A stretch of DNA of 40,665 bases from a virus. Lineage: Duplodnaviria > Heunggongvirae > Uroviricota > Caudoviricetes. Position 1 is the stretch's first letter; each line of letters starts with the position of its first letter. The stretch is taken from IMG/VR virus record IMGVR_UViG_2687453300_000007. The stretch is one strand, 5' to 3'. The notes below the pieces were generated by a model that was not told the origin of the DNA, searched no databases, and worked only from the letters and a program-made list of their open reading frames with translations. Of this stretch, positions 1 to 23,107 are shown piece by piece. The position numbers and the translations under genes are program-made.

Positions 1-993
1 CTAATCGATGGACAGTTTATGGACACTTTCAGCCAGCGGATTAAAGTTGATCGCGTCCAGTAAAAAGTCCGGCGAAAAATGAGCGTACGTCATTGTTTGC
101 TGAATCGTTGCGTGCCCCAGGATTCGTTGCAACGTAACAATATTTCCGCCATTCATCATAAAGTGTGTGGCAAATGTATGACGCATGACATGCGTAGCCT
201 GCCCCTTCGGCAAATCCGGTTTCACCTCCTGAAGAATCTCCCGGAACTTCAGATAATCAACCTGATACAATAACCCCGTTCGACGGGTTTTAATCAGAGG
301 CACGACCGAATCCGCCACAGGAACCGAACGGGATTTTCCGTTTTTGGTGTTAAAGAACGTCACCCGGTTGCCAACGATATGCTCTCCACGTAGTTCCGAT
401 GCTTCACTCCATCGGGCACCAGTAGAAAGACACAGAATGGCAACACGACGCACATCACCCTCCAGTCGCTCAAGAAGCCGTTCAATCTCATCATCAGAAA
501 GAAAGGCCATCTCTGTGTTCTGAACTTTCAGTTTTCGTATACCGCGTACAGGGTTCGCGTTGTGAAAGACCTCAGCTTCAATCAGCACCGTGAACATGGT
601 AGACAGTACGCATAAGTCACGATTAATACTGGACGGCATTAATCCGGCCTGTAATTTCTCTGACCGATATTCAAGCATAAATTTTCGCGTCATCTGACTG
701 GCGCGAGGATCTCCCATTTCACGAACAACCTTCCCTAGCCTAACCCTGTAGCTATCCCCGTAAGCCTGATTACGCCCATCAAGCATCCACCACGCATCAA
801 GCAGCTCTGATAATCGCCGCTGATCAGCTGGCTTAGCCTGCCATGGCTTGTCATGAAAGTTCTGTAACACATACTTCTCAAACTCCTGAGCCTTTGATTT
901 CAGGGCAAAGATTTTTCGAATCCGCTTTCCTTCCGCCCCCTGCGGTCTGACATCGACCTGATAACGTCCGTCTTTGAGTTGCTTAATCGACAT
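1..993 (-). CDS. int: Tyrosine integrase (P2 Int-like)
   Basis: 330-aa minus-strand ORF with the C-terminal R...HxxR...Y signature region of tyrosine recombinases (…VMRHTFATHF…LGHATIQQTMTYAHF…). Start placed at ATG 993, preceded by GGAGGGG SD; stop TAG at 1..3. Confidence 0.9.
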   Translation of the reverse strand: MSIKQLKDGRYQVDVRPQGAEGKRIRKIFALKSKAQEFEKYVLQNFHDKPWQAKPADQRRLSELLDAWWMLDGRNQAYGDSYRVRLGKVVREMGDPRASQMTRKFMLEYRSEKLQAGLMPSSINRDLCVLSTMFTVLIEAEVFHNANPVRGIRKLKVQNTEMAFLSDDEIERLLERLEGDVRRVAILCLSTGARWSEASELRGEHIVGNRVTFFNTKNGKSRSVPVADSVVPLIKTRRTGLLYQVDYLKFREILQEVKPDLPKGQATHVMRHTFATHFMMNGGNIVTLQRILGHATIQQTMTYAHFSPDFLLDAINFNPLAESVHKLSID

Positions 994-1062
994 GATTAGC
1001 CCCTCCAACGGATAAATTAACTAAACACTCCTTGCGATATGTAATTCGCTCAATGTGTAGAG

Positions 1063-2792: not shown

Positions 2793-3143
2793 ATGAAACT
2801 ACAGCGCAATTCTTCACAGCAGCGCTTCCGCAACGGTGCGGAACGCCATGCTAACCGTTTCGCTACCAGTGCATCACGTAGCAACTCTCGCTACAGCCTG
2901 AGCGAAACACACGCAACGCCGGATGGCTACCCAGTAAAACAAATTGGTGAACACACTTGGCTGATTGAAAAAGCAGGAATCGTGGTTCACAGATGCCAGC
3001 GCAACCCATTTACCGGAAACCGCATTTTTGCACTGAGCAACGGCGACAATCAGTTCGGGCAGGATTTCACATTATACGAAGCACTTCGCACGGTTGATCG
3101 TCTGCTTCACGGGCAAAGTTTTATTAAACAGGCTGATTTATAA
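2793..3143 (+). CDS. Hypothetical early protein (116 aa)
   Basis: Track ORF in the early operon. No family recognised. Confidence 0.4.
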   Translation: MKLQRNSSQQRFRNGAERHANRFATSASRSNSRYSLSETHATPDGYPVKQIGEHTWLIEKAGIVVHRCQRNPFTGNRIFALSNGDNQFGQDFTLYEALRTVDRLLHGQSFIKQADL

Positions 3144-8982: not shown

Positions 8983-9942
8983 ATGAAAATTTGTATCGAC
9001 GACGGCTCCACCAACATCAAGCTGGCATGGACTGAGAATGGCGAACGCCGCAACGCCATCAGCCCGAACAGCTTCAAGTCGGAATGGTCTGCGCCGTTCG
9101 GTGGCATGCAGCCCGCGAACTACATGCTTGATGGCGTGCGCTATGGTTTTGATCCGGTTAGCGATCGCTTTGTCCAGACGACCGACACGCAATACCAGTA
9201 CAGCGATGTGAATGTAATCGCCATTCATCACGCGCTGGTCAAATCAGGCATCACGCCACAGGAGGTGGATGTGGTTGTCACCCTGCCACTGAGCGAGTAT
9301 TTCGACACAAACGCACAGCCGGACATGGCCAACATCAACCGCAAAAAAGCGAACGTTATGCGCCCGGTGGAATACCAGAACGGCGAAGCATTCACTATCC
9401 GTAACGTGCGGGTTATGCCTGAATCCATTCCGGCTGGCTTTAAAGCACTGGCTGACATGAGTCCGTTTGAATCCCTGCTGATTGTGGATTTAGGCGGAAC
9501 CACGCTGGATGTGGCAAAGGTTCAAGGGCAACTGGCAGGTATCAGCCAGGTGTTTTGCGATCCACACGTAGGCGTTTCCCTGATGGCCGATGCCGTACTG
9601 TCGGTGATGGCCACTAACGGTATGCGCACCAGTCACCACATCGCCAATACCATTATCGAACATCGCCATGATGAAGCCTGGCTGCGCCAGCACATCCACA
9701 ATGACGCGCATTACGCCAGCCTGATGGCGGTTATTCGTGAAAAGGAAGAAACACTGAAACAACGCGTGATCCGCGCGCTGGCGGTTTTTTCGGGTTACGG
9801 GCGGGTGATGGTTGTCGGTGGAGGGGCGGAGATTGTGGCACCCGCTATCCGCGAAGTCTGCGGAGTTAATGCGACTTTCATCGCGGACGGGGTGCCACAG
9901 TTTGCTCTGGTTAATGGGCTGTACGCAATGGACAAGGAGTAA
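8983..9942 (+). CDS. parM: ParM/StbA-like actin-type segregation ATPase
   Basis: N-terminus MKICIDDGSTNIKLAW…ISPNSFK…YSDVNVIAIHHAL closely parallels plasmid R1 ParM as I recall it (MLVFIDDGSTNIKLQW…ISPNSFK…YSDVNVVAVHHAL). Also has the DxGGxT phosphate motif (IVDLGGTTLD). Confidence 0.8.
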   Translation: MKICIDDGSTNIKLAWTENGERRNAISPNSFKSEWSAPFGGMQPANYMLDGVRYGFDPVSDRFVQTTDTQYQYSDVNVIAIHHALVKSGITPQEVDVVVTLPLSEYFDTNAQPDMANINRKKANVMRPVEYQNGEAFTIRNVRVMPESIPAGFKALADMSPFESLLIVDLGGTTLDVAKVQGQLAGISQVFCDPHVGVSLMADAVLSVMATNGMRTSHHIANTIIEHRHDEAWLRQHIHNDAHYASLMAVIREKEETLKQRVIRALAVFSGYGRVMVVGGGAEIVAPAIREVCGVNATFIADGVPQFALVNGLYAMDKE

Positions 9943-10344: not shown

Positions 10345-11187
10345 TCATGATGAAATTGCCGAAGTTTTTTTATCGTGCTGAAGTACCGCAAATGCCATTA
10401 AAACCTCAAGAGAATAGCGGCGATAATACTTAACAAAACCATAATAAAATACTCGGGATGCAGCAATACAAAACAAGAGAAGAAAACAAAAAGGTAACAG
10501 TCTGATATTTATATCTATTAAAAAGGATAGAAGGAGCAGGAACATAAGCAACCAGACTGAAGCGAGAAAAACAAATGTAATGTTTCTACAAAAACCATAC
10601 AAAGCAACATAGTTTTGCATTTTCACCTGATGATTTTTAGAATGTTCATACACATAATGATAAGCAAGGCGAAAAAGATCGCCCCTCAAGCCCTTACGTC
10701 GATATAGCGTAGATACAGAAAAAACATTTATATAACCATCTCGTATTTGCGGCCAAAAGACTTTAATAAGTATAGAATGCAGTGTGGTTTTATGATGTTC
10801 TGCTTTATCAAAAGCTGATACAGGAAATAAAAAAACTCCACGAATAAAATTAACTATACTGAACTTAGTATTATGTCGTTTTATTTTCAGGGAGCTTCTT
10901 TTAGAAAACAGATAAATTGAAGGATACCCAAGTTTACTGTTCATGTATTTTTCAATTAAACAGGATGATAGAATAGATATGAAGTGACCTGAAATATATG
11001 ATAGAACGATTAATACCACATATATAAATACACTTATTATTTCTTTATATTTCAGGATATGGTTAAGAATACCTTCTATATAAACAGGGTTAATTTCAAT
11101 AGAAAACAAAAAAAGGATAAACAGGAATAACCCACCTGGAATTAGATAGCCCAAAAAGTCATAAAATGAAAACGGATTCTGTGTCAC
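10345..11187 (-). CDS. Hypothetical polytopic membrane protein (280 aa, about 4 TM)
   Basis: GTG start at 11187 with strong SD (AGGGGGAAG). Two N-terminal and two C-terminal hydrophobic helices flank a soluble stretch of about 125 aa. AT-rich with atypical codon usage. No family recognised. Confidence 0.6.
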   Translation of the reverse strand: MTQNPFSFYDFLGYLIPGGLFLFILFLFSIEINPVYIEGILNHILKYKEIISVFIYVVLIVLSYISGHFISILSSCLIEKYMNSKLGYPSIYLFSKRSSLKIKRHNTKFSIVNFIRGVFLFPVSAFDKAEHHKTTLHSILIKVFWPQIRDGYINVFSVSTLYRRKGLRGDLFRLAYHYVYEHSKNHQVKMQNYVALYGFCRNITFVFLASVWLLMFLLLLSFLIDINIRLLPFCFLLLFCIAASRVFYYGFVKYYRRYSLEVLMAFAVLQHDKKTSAISS

Positions 11188-11226
11188 ACTTCCCCCTGTG
11201 TTACTTGTAAATTAAAGGGTAAAACA

Positions 11227-11724
11227 TTATTTGTTTTTCCGTAAAGGATTAGCTTTCCATCTTCTTACTAACCATTCGAATTCTTGATATGTAGTATCCG
11301 AATTAATGCTTTCTCTGATTGCTTTAATTAATGGCTCGGCAATATCATATGTCTCTACAACTGTTGTGTAAGATGTTCTTTTTATCATTTTTTCATCATA
11401 AATACCTTCACGAATACTTACAGCAACTCGCTCGTAAAAATTTAAAATATATTGAAATTTTCGACGCTCGGCCATTTCTTCATCTGTTATTATGCAACCA
11501 TCACAAGGAAAAACATAAGAACGAAATGATTTGCCTGAACGATGCACTTGTTTCAGGGTATGCAATGACTCTATATATTGCATATCTTGCCGACTCTCAA
11601 AAAGAAAGTTGGCCGTTTGAGTTTTTTTTGCGGTACGCACATTGTAGATAATGGTTCCAATGGCAACCAAAACGCCAAGCAGAACAATAGCATTGCTGAT
11701 GATTTGTAGTGTTATTGGGTTCAT
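11227..11724 (-). CDS. Hypothetical single-pass membrane protein (165 aa)
   Basis: N-terminal TM helix (ITLQIISNAIVLLGVLVAIGTIIY) followed by a soluble domain of about 135 aa. Lies 39 bp upstream of the 280-aa gene on the same strand. AT-rich. Confidence 0.6.
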   Translation of the reverse strand: MNPITLQIISNAIVLLGVLVAIGTIIYNVRTAKKTQTANFLFESRQDMQYIESLHTLKQVHRSGKSFRSYVFPCDGCIITDEEMAERRKFQYILNFYERVAVSIREGIYDEKMIKRTSYTTVVETYDIAEPLIKAIRESINSDTTYQEFEWLVRRWKANPLRKNK

Positions 11725-16798: not shown

Positions 16799-17851
16799 AT
16801 GAATCTGGTGATGTCAGATATTACCCGCAACAAGCTGGGTTGCTATATGGCGCAGCAGGCGTCGCTTAACAATATCCCGGTATCTGCACTGGTATCGCGA
16901 TTTACCGTGGAACCCGCGGTGCAGCAGCGTTTTGAAAACGCCTCAAAGGAAAGTACCGAATTTACGAAAAGAATTAACGTGATCGGCGTGACCGACCAGA
17001 AAGGCGAAAAAATCCTCCTGGACACCACCGGGCCAATTGCGCGCACGAATAGCAGTTATGACGGCATCAAACGCCGTAACCCGAATAACGTGATCGATAT
17101 GAAGTCTCGTCAGTACCAGTGCGAACAGGTGAACTACGATACCTTTATTTCGTACCCACAGCTTGATACCTGGGCGGCCCACAGCGATTTTCAGTCCCGT
17201 ATCAGTACACAGATCGCCCGGCAGGTAGCGCTTGATCGCATCATGATTGGCTTTAACGGCACATCCCACGCCTACGAGTCTGATTTTCACACCAACAAGC
17301 TGCTTCAGGACGTTAACGTGGGCTGGCTGGAGCACATCAGAACCGATGCCAGCGAGCGCGTAATGAATGACGTGACGCTGACCTCCCGCAACATGGACAA
17401 CACTGTGGCGCACGCGGGTAAGTATGCGAATGCCGATGCTCTGGTACAGGATGCGCGCTCATCCCTGCTGGATGAATGGCACAAGGAAGCTGACGACCTC
17501 GCGGTGATTATGGGGCGCAACCTGTTTAACTCGCTGCGTCTGCCCGTGCTGAACAGCATCAGCGGCCAGAATCCCAATGCGGAATTACTTGCCGGGCAGC
17601 TCATCCTGTCATCGCGCACCATTGGCGGGCTGGGCGTGTTCCTTGCGCCGTTCTTCCCGGATGCAACGATGCTTATCACCTCGTTCAACAACCTGTCGAT
17701 TTACTGGCAGAAAGGTTCAATGCGTCGCCTGATGAAAGACGAGCCGGAATACAACCGCATCGCCACCTACCAGTCCATCAATGACGCTTATGTCGTTGAA
17801 GACTATGGCAAGTGCGCGATGGTCACTGGCCTGAAGTTCGCCGACAGCTAA
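16799..17851 (+). CDS. N: Major capsid protein (P2 gpN-like)
   Basis: 350-aa ORF with AAGGAG SD. Segments …FTVEPAV…, …NYDTFISYPQLDTWA…, …IMIGFNG… parallel P2 N. Confidence 0.9.
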   Translation: MNLVMSDITRNKLGCYMAQQASLNNIPVSALVSRFTVEPAVQQRFENASKESTEFTKRINVIGVTDQKGEKILLDTTGPIARTNSSYDGIKRRNPNNVIDMKSRQYQCEQVNYDTFISYPQLDTWAAHSDFQSRISTQIARQVALDRIMIGFNGTSHAYESDFHTNKLLQDVNVGWLEHIRTDASERVMNDVTLTSRNMDNTVAHAGKYANADALVQDARSSLLDEWHKEADDLAVIMGRNLFNSLRLPVLNSISGQNPNAELLAGQLILSSRTIGGLGVFLAPFFPDATMLITSFNNLSIYWQKGSMRRLMKDEPEYNRIATYQSINDAYVVEDYGKCAMVTGLKFADS

Positions 17852-18798: not shown

Positions 18799-19293
18799 AT
18801 GAGTATGGTTGCCAGAACTAACCCCGGCCCCGCAGAGGACGACATCACCGACACCGATGATGGCGATACCCGTATTTCAGCGGGTGCATTCTGGCCGGAT
18901 ATTGTGCTGCGCGAGCTGCGTCTGGCGGTACGACTGCCGGGCCGCGTGACCACCTCCCGCCTGCTGCATACCGCCACCGGGGCCATAGCACACGTTACCC
19001 GCGAGCTGGAAGCATGGCAGCAGGAACAACAGGCGGCTGGCTATCAGACGCTGGCCGATGTTCCGGCCCCTGTAATTAACGGAGAAAGCGTCAATCTCTG
19101 GCACTGGCGCAATGCTGTTTATACCGCCACACGCGCCCTGATTCTGGAGCGTTACCGCGATGCGGACACAACGGACAAGGGCGACCGCCGGGCGGACGCA
19201 CTGGATATACAGACATCGGATTTGTGGCGCGATGTGAGCTGGGCCATCTCTGACATTCTGGGACGACCGCGAATGTTTGCGGAGCTGTGCTGA
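18799..19293 (+). CDS. L: Head completion/stabilisation protein (P2 gpL-like)
   Basis: ATG 18799 with AGGAG SD. C-terminal …DLWRDVSWAISDILGRPR… resembles P2 L. Confidence 0.8.
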   Translation: MSMVARTNPGPAEDDITDTDDGDTRISAGAFWPDIVLRELRLAVRLPGRVTTSRLLHTATGAIAHVTRELEAWQQEQQAAGYQTLADVPAPVINGESVNLWHWRNAVYTATRALILERYRDADTTDKGDRRADALDIQTSDLWRDVSWAISDILGRPRMFAELC

Positions 19294-19493
19294 TGAAAGT
19301 GAAGGCACTGGAAGGCGACACCGTGGATTCGCTCTGTTTCCGGTACTACGGCACGACACAGGGCGTCACCGAAAAGGTGCTGGATGCCAACCCCGGACTC
19401 TGTCAGCAGGTATTTCTGGACGCCGGGCAGGAAGTGGAGATGCCGGAGCCGGAGAAGAAGAAACGAGAAATGATTCAGTTGTGGGGGGAGTAG
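19293..19493 (+). CDS. X: Small tail protein (P2 gpX-like)
   Basis: ATG 19293 overlaps the L stop (TGATG). About 66 aa; position matches P2 X. Confidence 0.6.
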   Translation: MKVKALEGDTVDSLCFRYYGTTQGVTEKVLDANPGLCQQVFLDAGQEVEMPEPEKKKREMIQLWGE

Positions 19494-19495
19494 CA

Positions 19496-19819
19496 GTGAG
19501 CACCATTCAAACAGGGATCACAGAGCAGGTTATTGCGTGGCTCTTTGACCACCTGCCAACGGTGTATGCAGTAGGCGCGGCGGTCAGCATTTCCGCGCTG
19601 ATGAGTCTTTATGACGGACGAACACTGGTTCAGACCGTAACGGGATCGCTGGCGTGCGGCGTTCTTGCCATGGCCGTGGCCGGGTCGCTGCGCTTCTTCG
19701 GGATCCCTGAGGATGCAGTGACGTTTTTTGGTGCCTCAATCGGTTTTATGGGCGCAGAGAAAGCACGCGACAAGGTTATTGCAATATTTGATCGCAGGGT
19801 GAAGGAGAGGAACGAATGA
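19496..19819 (+). CDS. Putative holin
   Basis: GTG 19496 start. About 107 aa with two to three hydrophobic segments, immediately upstream of the endolysin. Confidence 0.5.
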   Translation: MSTIQTGITEQVIAWLFDHLPTVYAVGAAVSISALMSLYDGRTLVQTVTGSLACGVLAMAVAGSLRFFGIPEDAVTFFGASIGFMGAEKARDKVIAIFDRRVKERNE

Positions 19820-20208
19820 GCAACACATTTAAATTCAGCAGCCGGAGCGAAAAGAATTTGCAGGGTGTAAATCCTGATCTGGTGAAAGTGACCCGACGGG
19901 CGCTGGAAATCTCGGAAGTGGATTTTGGTATCACCGAAGGATTGCGCAGTCGTTATCGTCAGAAGCAGCTCGTGACCACAGGCAAGAGCCAGACCATGAA
20001 CAGTCGCCATCTCACAGGGCATGCCGTGGATGTTGTGGCTTATGTCGGCAACCAGGTGTCATGGGAATGGCCGCTGTACGAAAAAATCGCAGCAGCATTC
20101 AGACAGGCCAGCCAGGAACTGAATATTCCGGTGGAATGGGGCGGCGACTGGAAGACCCTGAAAGACGGACCGCATTTTCAGTTACCACACGGAGCCTATC
20201 CGGCATGA
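19816..20208 (+). CDS. Endolysin, peptidase M15-type (L-alanyl-D-glutamate endopeptidase-like)
   Basis: 130 aa with zinc-ligand region …SRHLTGHAVDVVAY… characteristic of M15 phage endopeptidases; not the P2 K lysozyme type. Confidence 0.75.
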   Translation: MSNTFKFSSRSEKNLQGVNPDLVKVTRRALEISEVDFGITEGLRSRYRQKQLVTTGKSQTMNSRHLTGHAVDVVAYVGNQVSWEWPLYEKIAAAFRQASQELNIPVEWGGDWKTLKDGPHFQLPHGAYPA

Positions 20209-20600
20209 AGCTCTGGCCCACGCTTGGCGTCGCTTTCCTTCTGATTACATCCATGCGTCTGTCGTGGTCGCTGGGCCGGGAGAACGCCAGAAACGAAGCG
20301 CAGGCCAGCACCCTGAAAAGTACCGTCGACACACTGAATATCATCAGCGCCGGGGTACAGGATATGCAGCAGGTGCTGGCTCAGCTCCGCGCGGAAAATC
20401 AGCAACGCAATCAGGACGGAGAGGTAAGACGTGAACAGCTACGCAACGATATTGCAAAAGATGAATGCGCCCACGCTTTGCCTGACGCTCGTTTTACTGA
20501 CAGGTTGCGCAGGCACGCAGAACGCGCCAGGGCCAGCGCCGTCAGTCCGGCTTATACCGCAGACGCTGACCATGCCGGTAACGCCTCCCCCCTTCCCTGA
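20205..20600 (+). CDS. i-spanin (Rz/LysB-like)
   Basis: ATG 20205 overlapping the endolysin stop. N-terminal TM (LWPTLGVAFLLITSM) followed by a coiled-coil-rich periplasmic domain. Confidence 0.6.
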   Translation: MKLWPTLGVAFLLITSMRLSWSLGRENARNEAQASTLKSTVDTLNIISAGVQDMQQVLAQLRAENQQRNQDGEVRREQLRNDIAKDECAHALPDARFTDRLRRHAERARASAVSPAYTADADHAGNASPLP

Positions 20601-20742
20601 CCCACCCACATGGGGAAACCTCGGAATATGGGGCGACCGCCTTCTGGATGCACTGGAAACCTGTAACGCGGATAAACGGGCCATTGCTGAACTGGATAAG
20701 AGAATAGCCGAACTGACACACCAGACGGGAGTAACACAATGA
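20431..20742 (+). CDS. o-spanin (Rz1/LysC-like lipoprotein)
   Basis: Alternate-frame ORF overlapping the i-spanin 3' end. Signal peptide with lipobox LLTGC, then a proline-rich segment. The start may instead be the internal ATG at 20461. Confidence 0.55.
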   Translation: MNSYATILQKMNAPTLCLTLVLLTGCAGTQNAPGPAPSVRLIPQTLTMPVTPPPFPDPPTWGNLGIWGDRLLDALETCNADKRAIAELDKRIAELTHQTGVTQ

Positions 20743-22616
20743 CCAGTAAGAACTTTGCACTGATTACAGCCATGACACAGGCTGAACTGACTCAAAAGGT
20801 GAATGAACATCTTGCGAAAGGGTGGCATCTTCAGGGGGAGACGCGGGTTGCCTACGAACCCGGCACCCCGTGGTATCTAATGCAGGCAATGGTGGCCGAT
20901 GGCACTACAGACATCTCACCTGATTCCCCCCAGCACGGCAGCGTGCCGGAGTGGTATTACGTGGTGGTACTTGCTGGTCAATCCAATGCCATGTCATATG
21001 GTGAGGGAATGCCGCTGCCGGATTCTTACGATGCGCCCCACCCACGCATTAAGCAACTGGCCCGTCGCAACACAGTGACTCCCGGTGGTAAAGCATGCGC
21101 ATTTAACGACATCATTCCGGCAGACCACTGCCTGCATGATGTTCAGGATATGAGCGCACTGAATCACCCGAATGCAGACCTGAGCAAAGGGCAGTATGGC
21201 TGTGTCGGACAGGGCTTGCATATTGCCAAACGCCTGTTGCCTTACATTCCACAGAATGCCGGGATTTTACTGGTTCCATGCTGTCGTGGTGGTTCGGCAT
21301 TCACCCAGGGCGCGGAGGGGACATTCAGCGAGTCCACAGGAGCCAGTCAGGATTCGGCTCGCTGGGGTGTGGGTAAACCTTTATATCAGGACCTGATTTT
21401 GCGCACGAAGGCCGCATTGCAGAAAAACCCAAAAAACATGCTGCTGGCCGTATGCTGGATGCAGGGCGAATTTGACATGAGCGCCGCTACGTACTCACAG
21501 CAACCTCCGCTGTTTACGGCCATGCTGAAACAGTTTCGTGCGGACATTACCGAGTTTAACACGCAGTGTCATGGAGGCAGAGCGGCAAGTGTGCCATGGA
21601 TTTGTGGTGACACGACGTATTACTGGAAAAACACCTACGGCACGCAGTACGACACCATTTACGGGGCGTACAAAAACAGGGAGAGCGACAACGTTTTCTT
21701 TGTGCCGTTCCTGACCGATGGTAGTGGCAACAATACCTCCACCAACGCACCAACGGAAGATCCGGATGCTGCAAGTGAGGGATATTACGGTTCGGCATCC
21801 CGAACGAACAAAAACTGGGTATCATCAAATCGCCAGACGCATTTCAGCTCATGGGCGCGTCGTGGCATTATTCCCGATCGTATGGCAACCGCTATTCTGA
21901 ACGTAGCCGGTCGCACCTTAGCCTTCATCAGTGGTAAGGCACCGGAAATCAAACCCTCGCCCGGCGGCGACACGCCATCGGGGCCGTCTGAAGATGCATC
22001 CGTACGCACAATCTCCCTGTTGCCGACAGCCGGAGATGCTGCTGCGCAGGGCTGGAGCATTAAGAATGGCGGAATTCAGTTGTCAGAGGGTGTATTTAAG
22101 ATCACCAAGCAGAGCAATAAAGCCTGGTCCCTGACGCGCCCGGTGGATGACGCAGTCTCCCTGCTGACACGGGGTGGCAGACTGAGCTGTAAGTTTCGAC
22201 TGTCAGGCGCACTGACCAACAATCAGTTCGGTCTGGGAATTTATCTGTATACCGATGTAGCGTTACCTGACGTCGTGGCGATGACCGGGACTGGTAACCC
22301 GTTCCTGATGTCGTTCTTCACCCAGACCACAGACGGCAAACTGAATCTGATGCATCACAAGAAAGCAGGAAACACAAAGTTGGGCGAGTTCGGGAATTAC
22401 AGTAACGACTGGCAGACGCTGGAGCTGGTGTTCACCGCCGGCAGTGCCACGGTTACTCCGAAACTGAATGGAGTGGCTGGCCCGGCATTCCAGGTCATAA
22501 AAGACAGTCTGACACTGGGGCTGAATGCGCTGACGTTAACTGATATCACTAAAAATGCCGCGTACGGCGTCGATATCGGCAGCCTGGTGCTGGAAATCAA
22601 TAATCCCGCAGCATAA
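20739..22616 (+). CDS. SGNH-family sialate O-acetylesterase-like protein (NanS-p-like) with N-terminal DUF1737-like region
   Basis: 625 aa. GQSNA motif (…VVVLAGQSNAMSYGEG…) typical of 9-O-acetylesterase/SASA-domain enzymes; N-terminus MTSKNFALITAMTQAELTQKVNEHLAKGWHLQGE… as in prophage NanS-p proteins. Inserted between the lysis genes and R. Confidence 0.75.
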   Translation: MTSKNFALITAMTQAELTQKVNEHLAKGWHLQGETRVAYEPGTPWYLMQAMVADGTTDISPDSPQHGSVPEWYYVVVLAGQSNAMSYGEGMPLPDSYDAPHPRIKQLARRNTVTPGGKACAFNDIIPADHCLHDVQDMSALNHPNADLSKGQYGCVGQGLHIAKRLLPYIPQNAGILLVPCCRGGSAFTQGAEGTFSESTGASQDSARWGVGKPLYQDLILRTKAALQKNPKNMLLAVCWMQGEFDMSAATYSQQPPLFTAMLKQFRADITEFNTQCHGGRAASVPWICGDTTYYWKNTYGTQYDTIYGAYKNRESDNVFFVPFLTDGSGNNTSTNAPTEDPDAASEGYYGSASRTNKNWVSSNRQTHFSSWARRGIIPDRMATAILNVAGRTLAFISGKAPEIKPSPGGDTPSGPSEDASVRTISLLPTAGDAAAQGWSIKNGGIQLSEGVFKITKQSNKAWSLTRPVDDAVSLLTRGGRLSCKFRLSGALTNNQFGLGIYLYTDVALPDVVAMTGTGNPFLMSFFTQTTDGKLNLMHHKKAGNTKLGEFGNYSNDWQTLELVFTAGSATVTPKLNGVAGPAFQVIKDSLTLGLNALTLTDITKNAAYGVDIGSLVLEINNPAA

Positions 22617-22639
22617 GGAAGAGCAGGAGAGCAAAACAG

Positions 22640-23107
22640 ATGCTTAAGACAAACAGTCTGCGAGAGTCCATGCTTCATGGGTGTCGGTGGTGCCAGGCTA
22701 ATCCCGAGAAATTCACCATTTTCGTGGAGAGCGGCAACATTGAAACGACCGGAGAAGCGCCCTCGTTTGTTTACCGCTATCAGATGGTGATGTTTGTCAT
22801 GGATTACGCCGGAGAGCTGGACGACCTCACGCTGCCGCTGCTGGCGTGGTTATCCGAAAATCAGCCACAGTTGTTGCTCAATCCGGAGCGTAATCAGGAC
22901 ATCAAATTTTCTGCCGTTATCAATGACGATGACAGCGCCGATCTCCTGTTTACGCTCCCCCTGCGGGAACGCGTTCGCATCACGCGCAACAGTCAGGGCA
23001 CACCGCAGGCAGAACACCTGCCGGAGCCAAAACCCCGTCTGCCTTCTTCCGAAGGCGACTGGTCGCATGTATTCCAGGATGTGACGTGGGGTGAAAGCGA
23101 TGGATAA
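22640..23107 (+). CDS. R: Tail completion protein (P2 gpR-like)
   Basis: 155 aa, the same length as P2 R; follows the lysis cassette. Confidence 0.7.
   Translation: MLKTNSLRESMLHGCRWCQANPEKFTIFVESGNIETTGEAPSFVYRYQMVMFVMDYAGELDDLTLPLLAWLSENQPQLLLNPERNQDIKFSAVINDDDSADLLFTLPLRERVRITRNSQGTPQAEHLPEPKPRLPSSEGDWSHVFQDVTWGESDG

Follow-up and report, generated by a model that had tools for sequence, protein, structure and literature searches.

We analysed a 40,665-nucleotide stretch of tailed-phage DNA (IMG/VR record IMGVR_UViG_2687453300_000007; hereafter the window), which carries a nanS-p-like gene at 20739–22616 on the plus strand. Comparison of this gene across phages indicates that it is a mosaic, in which the N-terminal DUF1737 domain, a putative adaptor, appears to be inherited with the phage, whereas the body that follows, an esterase joined to a lectin-like domain, appears to be exchanged across phage families. 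The open reading frame (ORF) starts with ATG and encodes a 625-residue protein, exactly as an earlier sequence-only reading of the window had it. The DUF1737 domain (residues 1–55; 20739–20903) is a P2-lineage-specific variant, as judged from Pfam, an AlphaFold2 model and identity comparison. It is followed by a disordered Ser/Pro-containing linker (linker 1, residues 56–68, TTDISPDSPQHGS; 20904–20942; predicted local distance difference test [pLDDT] score below 50), an SGNH type II/SASA esterase domain (residues 69–398; 20943–21932), a disordered Pro/Ser-rich linker (linker 2, residues 399–422; 21933–22004; pLDDT below 50 for residues 400–422) and a C-terminal lectin-like jelly-roll domain, DUF6645 (residues 423–625; 22005–22613), the last recognised by its match to PDB entry 6YP6 and by Foldseek.

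Mosaic structure and distribution of the P2-type gene

At the nucleotide level, the gene resembles lambdoid nanS-p (that of phage 434 and of Stx1a phages; ~85%) only from 20945 on, in the codon for residue 69 and just past linker 1, and from there to the C terminus the protein (residues 69–625) is 85–87% identical to the NanS-p of phage 434 and JLK-2012. Broken down by segment, identity to these two lambdoid proteins is 31–33% over residues 1–55, 85–86% over residues 69–390 and 87% over residues 430–625. The same three segments gave 20%, 67% and 36% against F451, a phi24B-like Stx2a phage, and 55–64%, 66–70% and 31–37% against three distant P2-like loci (L008, L012 and L014); for the distant P2-like proteins' C-terminal domain, the 31–37% comes from pairwise alignment, tblastn finding no match to that of the window. 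N-terminal identity ranges from 55 to 95% among P2-like phages and from 20 to 39% between them and lambdoid phages, and the N-terminal identity matrix falls into two clean blocks, one P2-type and one lambdoid, whereas the esterase and C-terminal matrices do not.

Conservation within the P2-type group was examined at several distances. In two divergent E. coli P2-type variants, the N-termini are 100% identical to that of the window, and the bodies are 88–99% identical and patchworked with lambdoid alleles. Across 26 P88-like loci from IMG/VR, the left junction is identical in every one and the N-terminal segment in 20 (minimum 92.1%); identities are 80.7–100% for the esterase, 90.7–100% for the C-terminal domain and 99.4–100% for the capsid gene. 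A second clear case of an exchanged body, with the N-terminus kept with the virion type, is Stx2-converting phage 86, a Traversvirus like phi24B, whose NanS-p (L055 228–2123) joins a phi24B-type DUF1737 to a 434/window-type body and is 79% identical overall to the window protein.

The backbone of the window is that of a P88-like Xuanwuvirus (P2 family, Peduoviridae), at 96–97% nucleotide identity. P88 has the same gene order, X-holin-M15 endolysin-lysB-lysC-R-S-V, with flanks that are 96–97% identical at the nucleotide level. In P88 and many relatives, lysC is followed directly by R, whereas the window has an extra 1.9-kb gene together with diverged lysC 3' and R 5' ends, and in blastn P88 and its relatives align to the window in two pieces that skip nanS-p. 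The gene is likewise absent from P2, where lysC overlaps R, so the earlier statement that it sits between the spanins and R, where P2 has no gene, is confirmed and extends to P88. Homology to P88 ends at 20686, leaving out the last ~18 codons of lysC, and resumes at 22682, past the first ~14 codons of R. Because these breakpoints lie inside lysC and R, the segment that is diverged from P88 or has no counterpart there (20687–22681, covering the lysC 3' end, nanS-p, the intergenic region and the R 5' end, by blastn and alignment) exceeds the ORF, and it looks like an exchange between P2-like phages via flanking homology.

The slot between lysC and R is also filled elsewhere in the P2 lineage. 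Distant P2-like phages (identity ~62% for the capsid protein, 56–58% for R and 45–48% for S) carry a DUF1737-SASA-jelly-roll gene of 642–656 codons between lysC and R, and the sub-variants P0076 and P0106 occupy the same slot in P2-like phages with lysozyme-type endolysins, where a small DUF1378 gene follows, as in Stx phages; all P2-type sub-variants examined lie there. Since the P2-type N-terminal block is distinct and the slot is filled in distant P2-like phages too, its occupation appears to be old in the P2 lineage. We rejected a simple insertion of a lambdoid gene, given the junctions inside lysC and R and an N-terminus that is P2-specific and not lambdoid, and in that sense the earlier description of the gene as inserted does not hold. 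DUF1378/DUF826 genes follow nanS-p in lambdoid and in the more distant P2-like phages, a DUF1378 gene lying between nanS-p and R at L048 9046–9213, L050 12105–12257 and L008 7971–8373; they are absent in the window, where nanS-p and R are just 23 nt apart.

The lysB-nanS-p-R arrangement was present in 373 of 5,426 complete E. coli genomes, and an empty P88-type junction in 689. Within E. coli, 376 genomes contain the 207-nt N-terminal segment, about the number with the P2-type arrangement, and lysC adjoins it in all but a few of the sampled rows. Some 350 phage records and ~2,100 E. coli genomes carry nanS-p. Carriers of the P2-type gene include ST131, O104:H4 C227-11, O103:H2 and O111:H11. 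A word-indexed protein search with the 71-residue N-terminus returned only near-identical fragments at contig ends, and a HMMER search with the N-terminus against 1.84 billion representatives gave 10 matches at E<1e-3, mostly short single-domain proteins. The P2-type N-terminal alignment had no match in species-representative genomes, presumably because the element varies between strains. Our search of the searchable literature for DUF1737 or a sialate esterase in P2-like phages found nothing relevant. Three P88-like records labelled complete (ON470599.1, ON470623.1 and PV468777.1) are 100% identical over the equivalents of window positions 19000–22202 and end within nanS-p, at about residues 405–488; these ends are probably an assembly or prophage-boundary artefact arising from multi-copy host nanS-p.

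The encoded esterase and its place in the late operon

Pfam assigned residues 4–53 to DUF1737 (PF08410; E 1.1e-6, 28.8 bits against a cutoff of 24), residues 75–271 to SASA (E 2e-11) and residues 476–586 to DUF6645 (PF20350; E 2.1e-19), and the GQSNA motif lies at residues 80–84. The functionally unannotated PHROG family phrog_143 covers the protein end to end (1068 bits), and NCBIfam had no model for it. In a PDB sequence search, E. coli NanS/YjhS (3PT5) matched residues 69–388 (E 1.7e-125, ~58% identity) and the C-terminal domain of phi24B NanS-p (6YP6) matched residues 430–622 (E 1.7e-29). The AlphaFold2 model (mean pLDDT 73.9) has three ordered modules with disordered linkers between them: a beta-alpha-beta-beta unit (residues 4–54), the esterase (residues 69–398) and a beta-sandwich (residues 423–620). 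Foldseek placed the esterase next to 3PT5 (template modelling [TM] score 0.81) and the C-terminal domain next to 6YP6 (TM 0.85, root-mean-square deviation 2.2 Å), followed by ConA-type lectins that include the sialic-acid-binding domain of V. cholerae sialidase; the domain resembles sialic-acid and ganglioside binders. The DUF1737-like N-terminus, the GQSNA motif and the NanS-p-type SGNH/SASA O-acetylesterase architecture recognised in the sequence-only reading are all borne out. Its C-terminal carbohydrate-binding extension of roughly 250 residues proved lectin-like, as in 6YP6, and slightly shorter than supposed: beyond the NanS-homologous region there is a disordered linker of ~35 residues and then a beta-sandwich domain of ~200 residues.

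In NanS, catalysis relies on Ser19 and His301, Gln18 is part of the oxyanion hole and a catalytic Asp is missing (PMC9063846). Residues Gln81, Ser82 and His368 of the window protein (codons 20979–20984 for Gln81-Ser82 and 21840–21842 for His368) align with NanS Gln18, Ser19 and His301 and are invariant across an alignment of 39 homologues, so the catalytic Ser and His expected of such an enzyme are in place. E. coli NanS shares the SGNH type II core, the Ser-His dyad and the Gln oxyanion residue but lacks the DUF1737 and lectin-like domains, and it belongs to a chromosomal sialic-acid catabolic regulon, not to a phage operon. Lambdoid NanS-p proteins (933W Z1466/L0105; phi24B gp84, also vb_24B_21; 434 gp71) have the same DUF1737-SASA-DUF6645 order and the same catalytic residues. 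At the sugar site proposed for phi24B NanS-p, formed by the aromatics Y510, Y515, Y540 and F611 (PMC10462455), three of the four positions are still aromatic here (F497, Y502 and F527) and the fourth is L593.

The protein agrees with the NanS-p family at every sequence-level test and is a full member of it, an ordinary enzyme of an already known kind, and it is very probably an active NanS-like esterase. NanS-p enzymes of EDL933 and O104:H4 have been shown to be active, among them five of O104:H4 C227-11 (PMC8065619). Because C227-11 carries the same P2-type nanS-p gene, the P2-type allele may already have been assayed among those enzymes, its phage context unremarked.

The gene runs in the same direction as the lysis and tail genes around it. 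On its 5' side, the late block runs through the major capsid protein gene gpN (16799–17851), the small terminase, head completion gene L, X, the holin, an M15 endolysin, a LysB-like gene and the o-spanin gene lysC (20431–20742, plus strand; Pfam LysC, E 1.6e-13, and RefSeq annotation in matching genomes). On its 3' side lie R, S, V and W, the tail completion/terminator gene R (22640–23107, plus strand; Pfam P2_Phage_GpR, E 1.4e-38) having its own AGGAG. We read from the sequence a Shine-Dalgarno motif, GGGAG, at 20727–20731, 7 nt 5' of the nanS-p start, and an ATGA at 20739–20742 in which the start codon (20739–20741) overlaps the lysC stop (20740–20742), the whole signal spanning 20727–20742 on the plus strand. 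This overlap would couple nanS-p translationally to lysC. GC content is 0.54–0.56, the same as in the flanks, with no compositional anomaly.

Scans of 16–25 kb for promoter- and terminator-like sequences gave no matches above the expectation from shuffled sequence, with the promoter-like count below it; the consensus matching used for promoters is crude. There was no terminator between nanS-p and R. An Ogr-type TGT-N12-ACA was not found in 12.1–29.3 kb, which is weak evidence, as the pattern also misses the late promoters expected there. In P2, the lysC-R-S stretch belongs to the O operon, with a terminator after S. Lambdoid nanS-p, which is induced together with the late genes (PMC10462455; also PMC8065619), is like the window gene in being late-gene-linked and beside a lysis cassette, but lies between Q/stx and holin S, whereas the window gene belongs to a P2-family myovirus and is flanked by the lysis genes on its 5' side and by tail gene R on its 3' side; the lambdoid location is the usual context and does not define the protein family. 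Given the ATGA coupling, the 23-nt gap to the R start and the lack of any dedicated promoter or terminator that rises above background, expression of nanS-p is probably late or lysis-linked, and we regard it, on its arrangement, as an accessory gene of the late lysis/tail (O-type) operon and not an autonomous moron. We read no signal-peptide-like hydrophobic stretch in the N-terminus of the product, and release is therefore expected to need phage lysis.

Proposed capsid docking and alternative roles

The explanation we consider best, and to which we would give about an even chance, is that nanS-p encodes a NanS-p-type sialate O-acetylesterase of the late operon that is released by lysis and docked on the capsid via DUF1737, its body having been swapped with lambdoid phages. 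Such an enzyme would be made only in lytic growth and would be let out as the neighbouring holin/endolysin/spanin cassette lyses the cell. Outside, the esterase would strip O-acetyl groups from the 9-O-acetylated sialic acids of mucin-type glycans, to which the lectin-like C-terminal domain would target it. The 55-residue DUF1737 domain would be a phage-lineage-specific adaptor, docking the enzyme on the P2-type capsid via flexible Ser/Pro linkers, and virions would gain a surface that binds or modifies mucus; kin lysogens that survive would, in addition, obtain access to sialic acid through enzyme that is free or has been cleaved off. Recombination in shared hosts would repeatedly exchange the esterase-lectin body with lambdoid nanS-p alleles, the adaptor staying with the phage type.

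Docking on a P2-type capsid is proposed because the homologous domain of phi24B gp84 binds capsid hexons as a hexamer. That protein, the phi24B NanS-p, is a virion protein whose DUF1737 (residues 2–57) lodges, as a hexamer, within the central pore of the facet-centre hexons of a T=9 capsid, anchored by a loop 'tooth', Tyr42, inserted between the pore helices of the capsid protein; its esterase and lectin parts are apparently cleaved off near SSP-containing linker motifs (bioRxiv 10.64898/2026.04.10.717836). The window domain is of the same Pfam family as this decoration domain (according to the preprint, PDB 9XLP and related entries) and shares its predicted fold and a Ser/Pro-containing flexible linker. 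Its AlphaFold2 model (pLDDT ~88) has strands at residues 4–11, 29–40 and 43–54 and a helix at 14–26, that is, the helix and three antiparallel strands described for the gp84 domain, with a conserved EPG at the tip of the beta2-beta3 hairpin. The two domains are ~20% identical, and they differ in the gp84 Tyr42 loop versus the EPGxPWY hairpin of the window and in the target capsid, which is the T=9 shell of phi24B for gp84 and, putatively and by analogy, the T=7 shell of P2 gpN for the window domain.

We distinguished five N-terminal types among E. coli NanS-p proteins, which differ mainly in the beta2-loop-beta3 segment, the part that bears the anchor in gp84. The P2 type has an invariant (A)[YS]EPGxPWYLMQ hairpin, and the window DUF1737 is a distinct subtype, 20–33% identical to those of lambdoid NanS-p and with a different beta2-beta3 loop. 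N-terminal type follows virion type in the P2-type loci examined and in phi24B-type Traversviruses, although not in 434 versus JLK-2012. Elsewhere, the NanS-p cassette is joined in one protein to a tail-fibre N-terminal domain (P0102) and, at the end of a Mu-like prophage, has an unrelated N-terminus of ~120 residues and no DUF1737 (P0133); both arrangements, like the phi24B-type N-terminus kept by Stx2-converting phage 86, fit a virion-docking role.

These proteins have features of their own. The tail-fibre fusion (L046 1015–3768; 917 residues) comprises a PF08400 tail-fibre N-terminal domain, a coiled coil, the esterase and lectin domains of NanS-p and a further tail at the C terminus. Its gene adjoins a tail-fibre assembly gene at a prophage end, and the esterase cassette appears to serve there as a tail-fibre module. 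The gene in the Mu-like prophage (L044 7001–9070; also P0080) has genes for the tail fibre, its assembly and a Gin-like invertase before it and, in the manner of Stx phages, DUF1378 and DUF826 after it. On a single contig, a 752-residue protein (P0020) consists of ~600 residues identical to the window protein and then a tail-collar (PF07484) fibre C-terminus; either a genuine fusion or a chimeric assembly may account for it.

Several observations weigh against docking. The gp84 anchor Tyr42 is not conserved: the aligned residue is Thr43, and the loop is replaced by the EPGxPWY hairpin, in which another aromatic (Y39, W45 or Y46) might stand in for it. In phi24B, DUF1737 occupies only the flat hexons at the facet centres of the T=9 shell, a kind of hexon that the T=7 capsids of the P2 type lack. 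The N-termini of 434, which has a lambda gpE-type capsid, and JLK-2012, which has a protease-capsid fusion, are 92% identical, and the two capsid proteins are without detectable sequence similarity. Because this pair shares its N-terminal type across unrelated capsids, the type is not strictly capsid-specific, and we rejected a strict one-to-one relation between N-terminal type and capsid type among lambdoid phages. Searching with the N-terminal model, Foldseek detected no neighbour of significance in a PDB set that was without the gp84 chains; the best match was dodecin-like (E 0.08), and decoration proteins were absent from the list. Finally, a lineage-bound N-terminus could reflect vertical descent together with a recombination boundary where lambdoid homology ends. 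With these points set beside the gp84 analogy, we judge it slightly less probable than not that DUF1737 docks the esterase on the P2-type capsid.

One alternative is a soluble public good without virion association, in which the enzyme, set free when a fraction of the lysogens lyse, de-O-acetylates Neu5,9Ac2 from mucins and so lets surviving kin grow on sialic acid, and DUF1737 has another role, such as folding or oligomerisation, or none. Growth on Neu5,9Ac2 and de-O-acetylation of mucin have been shown by experiment for lambdoid NanS-p (PMC8065619), the active site here is intact and the gene lies in the late operon beside the lysis cassette; the non-conserved Tyr42 and the N-terminal type shared by 434 and JLK-2012 across unrelated capsids add to this. 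A soluble enzyme, however, leaves unexplained a lineage-bound, near-invariant N-terminus beside a freely recombining body, as well as the fusion to a tail-fibre N-terminus and the capsid binding of phi24B DUF1737. We consider this explanation possible, if on the unlikely side.

An enzyme that serves the phage itself, de-O-acetylating capsules or O-antigens to expose receptors or to free progeny from debris in the manner of a receptor-destroying enzyme, would fit the existence of the same cassette as a tail-fibre fusion and a lectin-like domain similar to binders of sialic acid and gangliosides. In its favour, too, O-acetylated sialic acid is a component of both the O104 antigen and the K1 capsule. 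Most carrier strains (ST131, O103 and O111), however, are not known for sialic acid display. Action on bacterial surface glycans has been raised as an idea for NanS-p, but the substrate of the nearest enzyme, NanS, is free Neu5,9Ac2 and those of NanS-p are mucin glycans (PMC8065619), and we hold a phage-serving role to be improbable.

Least tenable is a moron in the sense of the sequence-only reading, an independently transcribed conversion cargo active in the repressed prophage and inserted from a lambdoid Stx-type phage: the gene is missing from P2, P88 and the ~689 E. coli genomes with an empty junction, its body is 85% nucleotide-identical to lambdoid nanS-p and one weak sigma-70-like match, the sole plus-strand promoter-like match near the gene, lies at 20713–20740, but this match is unable to serve nanS-p because it ends on the start codon, and the promoter-like matches below shuffle expectation, the missing terminator before R, the ATGA overlap with lysC, the flank-like GC, the non-lambdoid N-terminus and the filled slot in distant P2-like phages make such an autonomous unit very improbable.

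Returning to docking via DUF1737, it can be extended to a more general and doubtful proposal, in which a lineage-adapted P2-family DUF1737 'plug' would display an interchangeable esterase/lectin cassette on the T=7 capsid, and DUF1737, tail-fibre N-termini and the Mu-like N-terminus would be alternative docking adaptors for one mobile mucus-targeting cassette of temperate coliphages. On this proposal, glycan-active virions would come from roughly one in three P88-like prophages, those of ST131 and O104:H4 among them.

Other cargo in the window and implications for P2-family prophages

Three further features of the window lie away from nanS-p. Between the replication genes and the portal gene Q, a low-GC patch (10345–11724, minus strand; 31–37% against ~55%) holds two ORFs, one for a 279-residue protein with no Pfam match and a weak Csx27-like match in PADLOC (E 1.2e-5) and the other for a DUF4760 protein (E 1.8e-34). 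The site is the classic P2 cargo hotspot, which makes the two genes candidates for an anti-phage system. A ParM/StbA-type actin-like segregation protein (8983–9942, plus strand; StbA_N, E 2.7e-82, with a ParM C-terminal domain) is encoded directly after the gpA-like replication gene, an unusual cargo for an integrating P2-like prophage. A DUF4761 protein (2793–3143, plus strand; E 2.2e-68) is encoded in the AT-richer early region near the integrase (1–1008, minus strand).

The enzyme being a routine NanS-p homologue, the esterase call by itself adds little, and what is useful is the comparative pattern: an adaptor domain that appears to be bound to the phage lineage and a catalytic-lectin body that appears to be traded among P2-like, lambdoid, Mu-like and tail-fibre contexts. 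Should docking prove false, nanS-p would still be a public-good esterase, expressed late and now known from a new phage family. Taken with phi24B, the pattern predicts that common P2-like prophages of pathogenic E. coli (ST131, O104:H4, O103 and O111) yield virions decorated with a mucin-active esterase. We know of no head decoration proteins in P2-family phages, and if the prediction is true, this would be the first head decoration reported for the family. NanS-p would then be recast from 'metabolic cargo' of the lysogen to a component of the virion.

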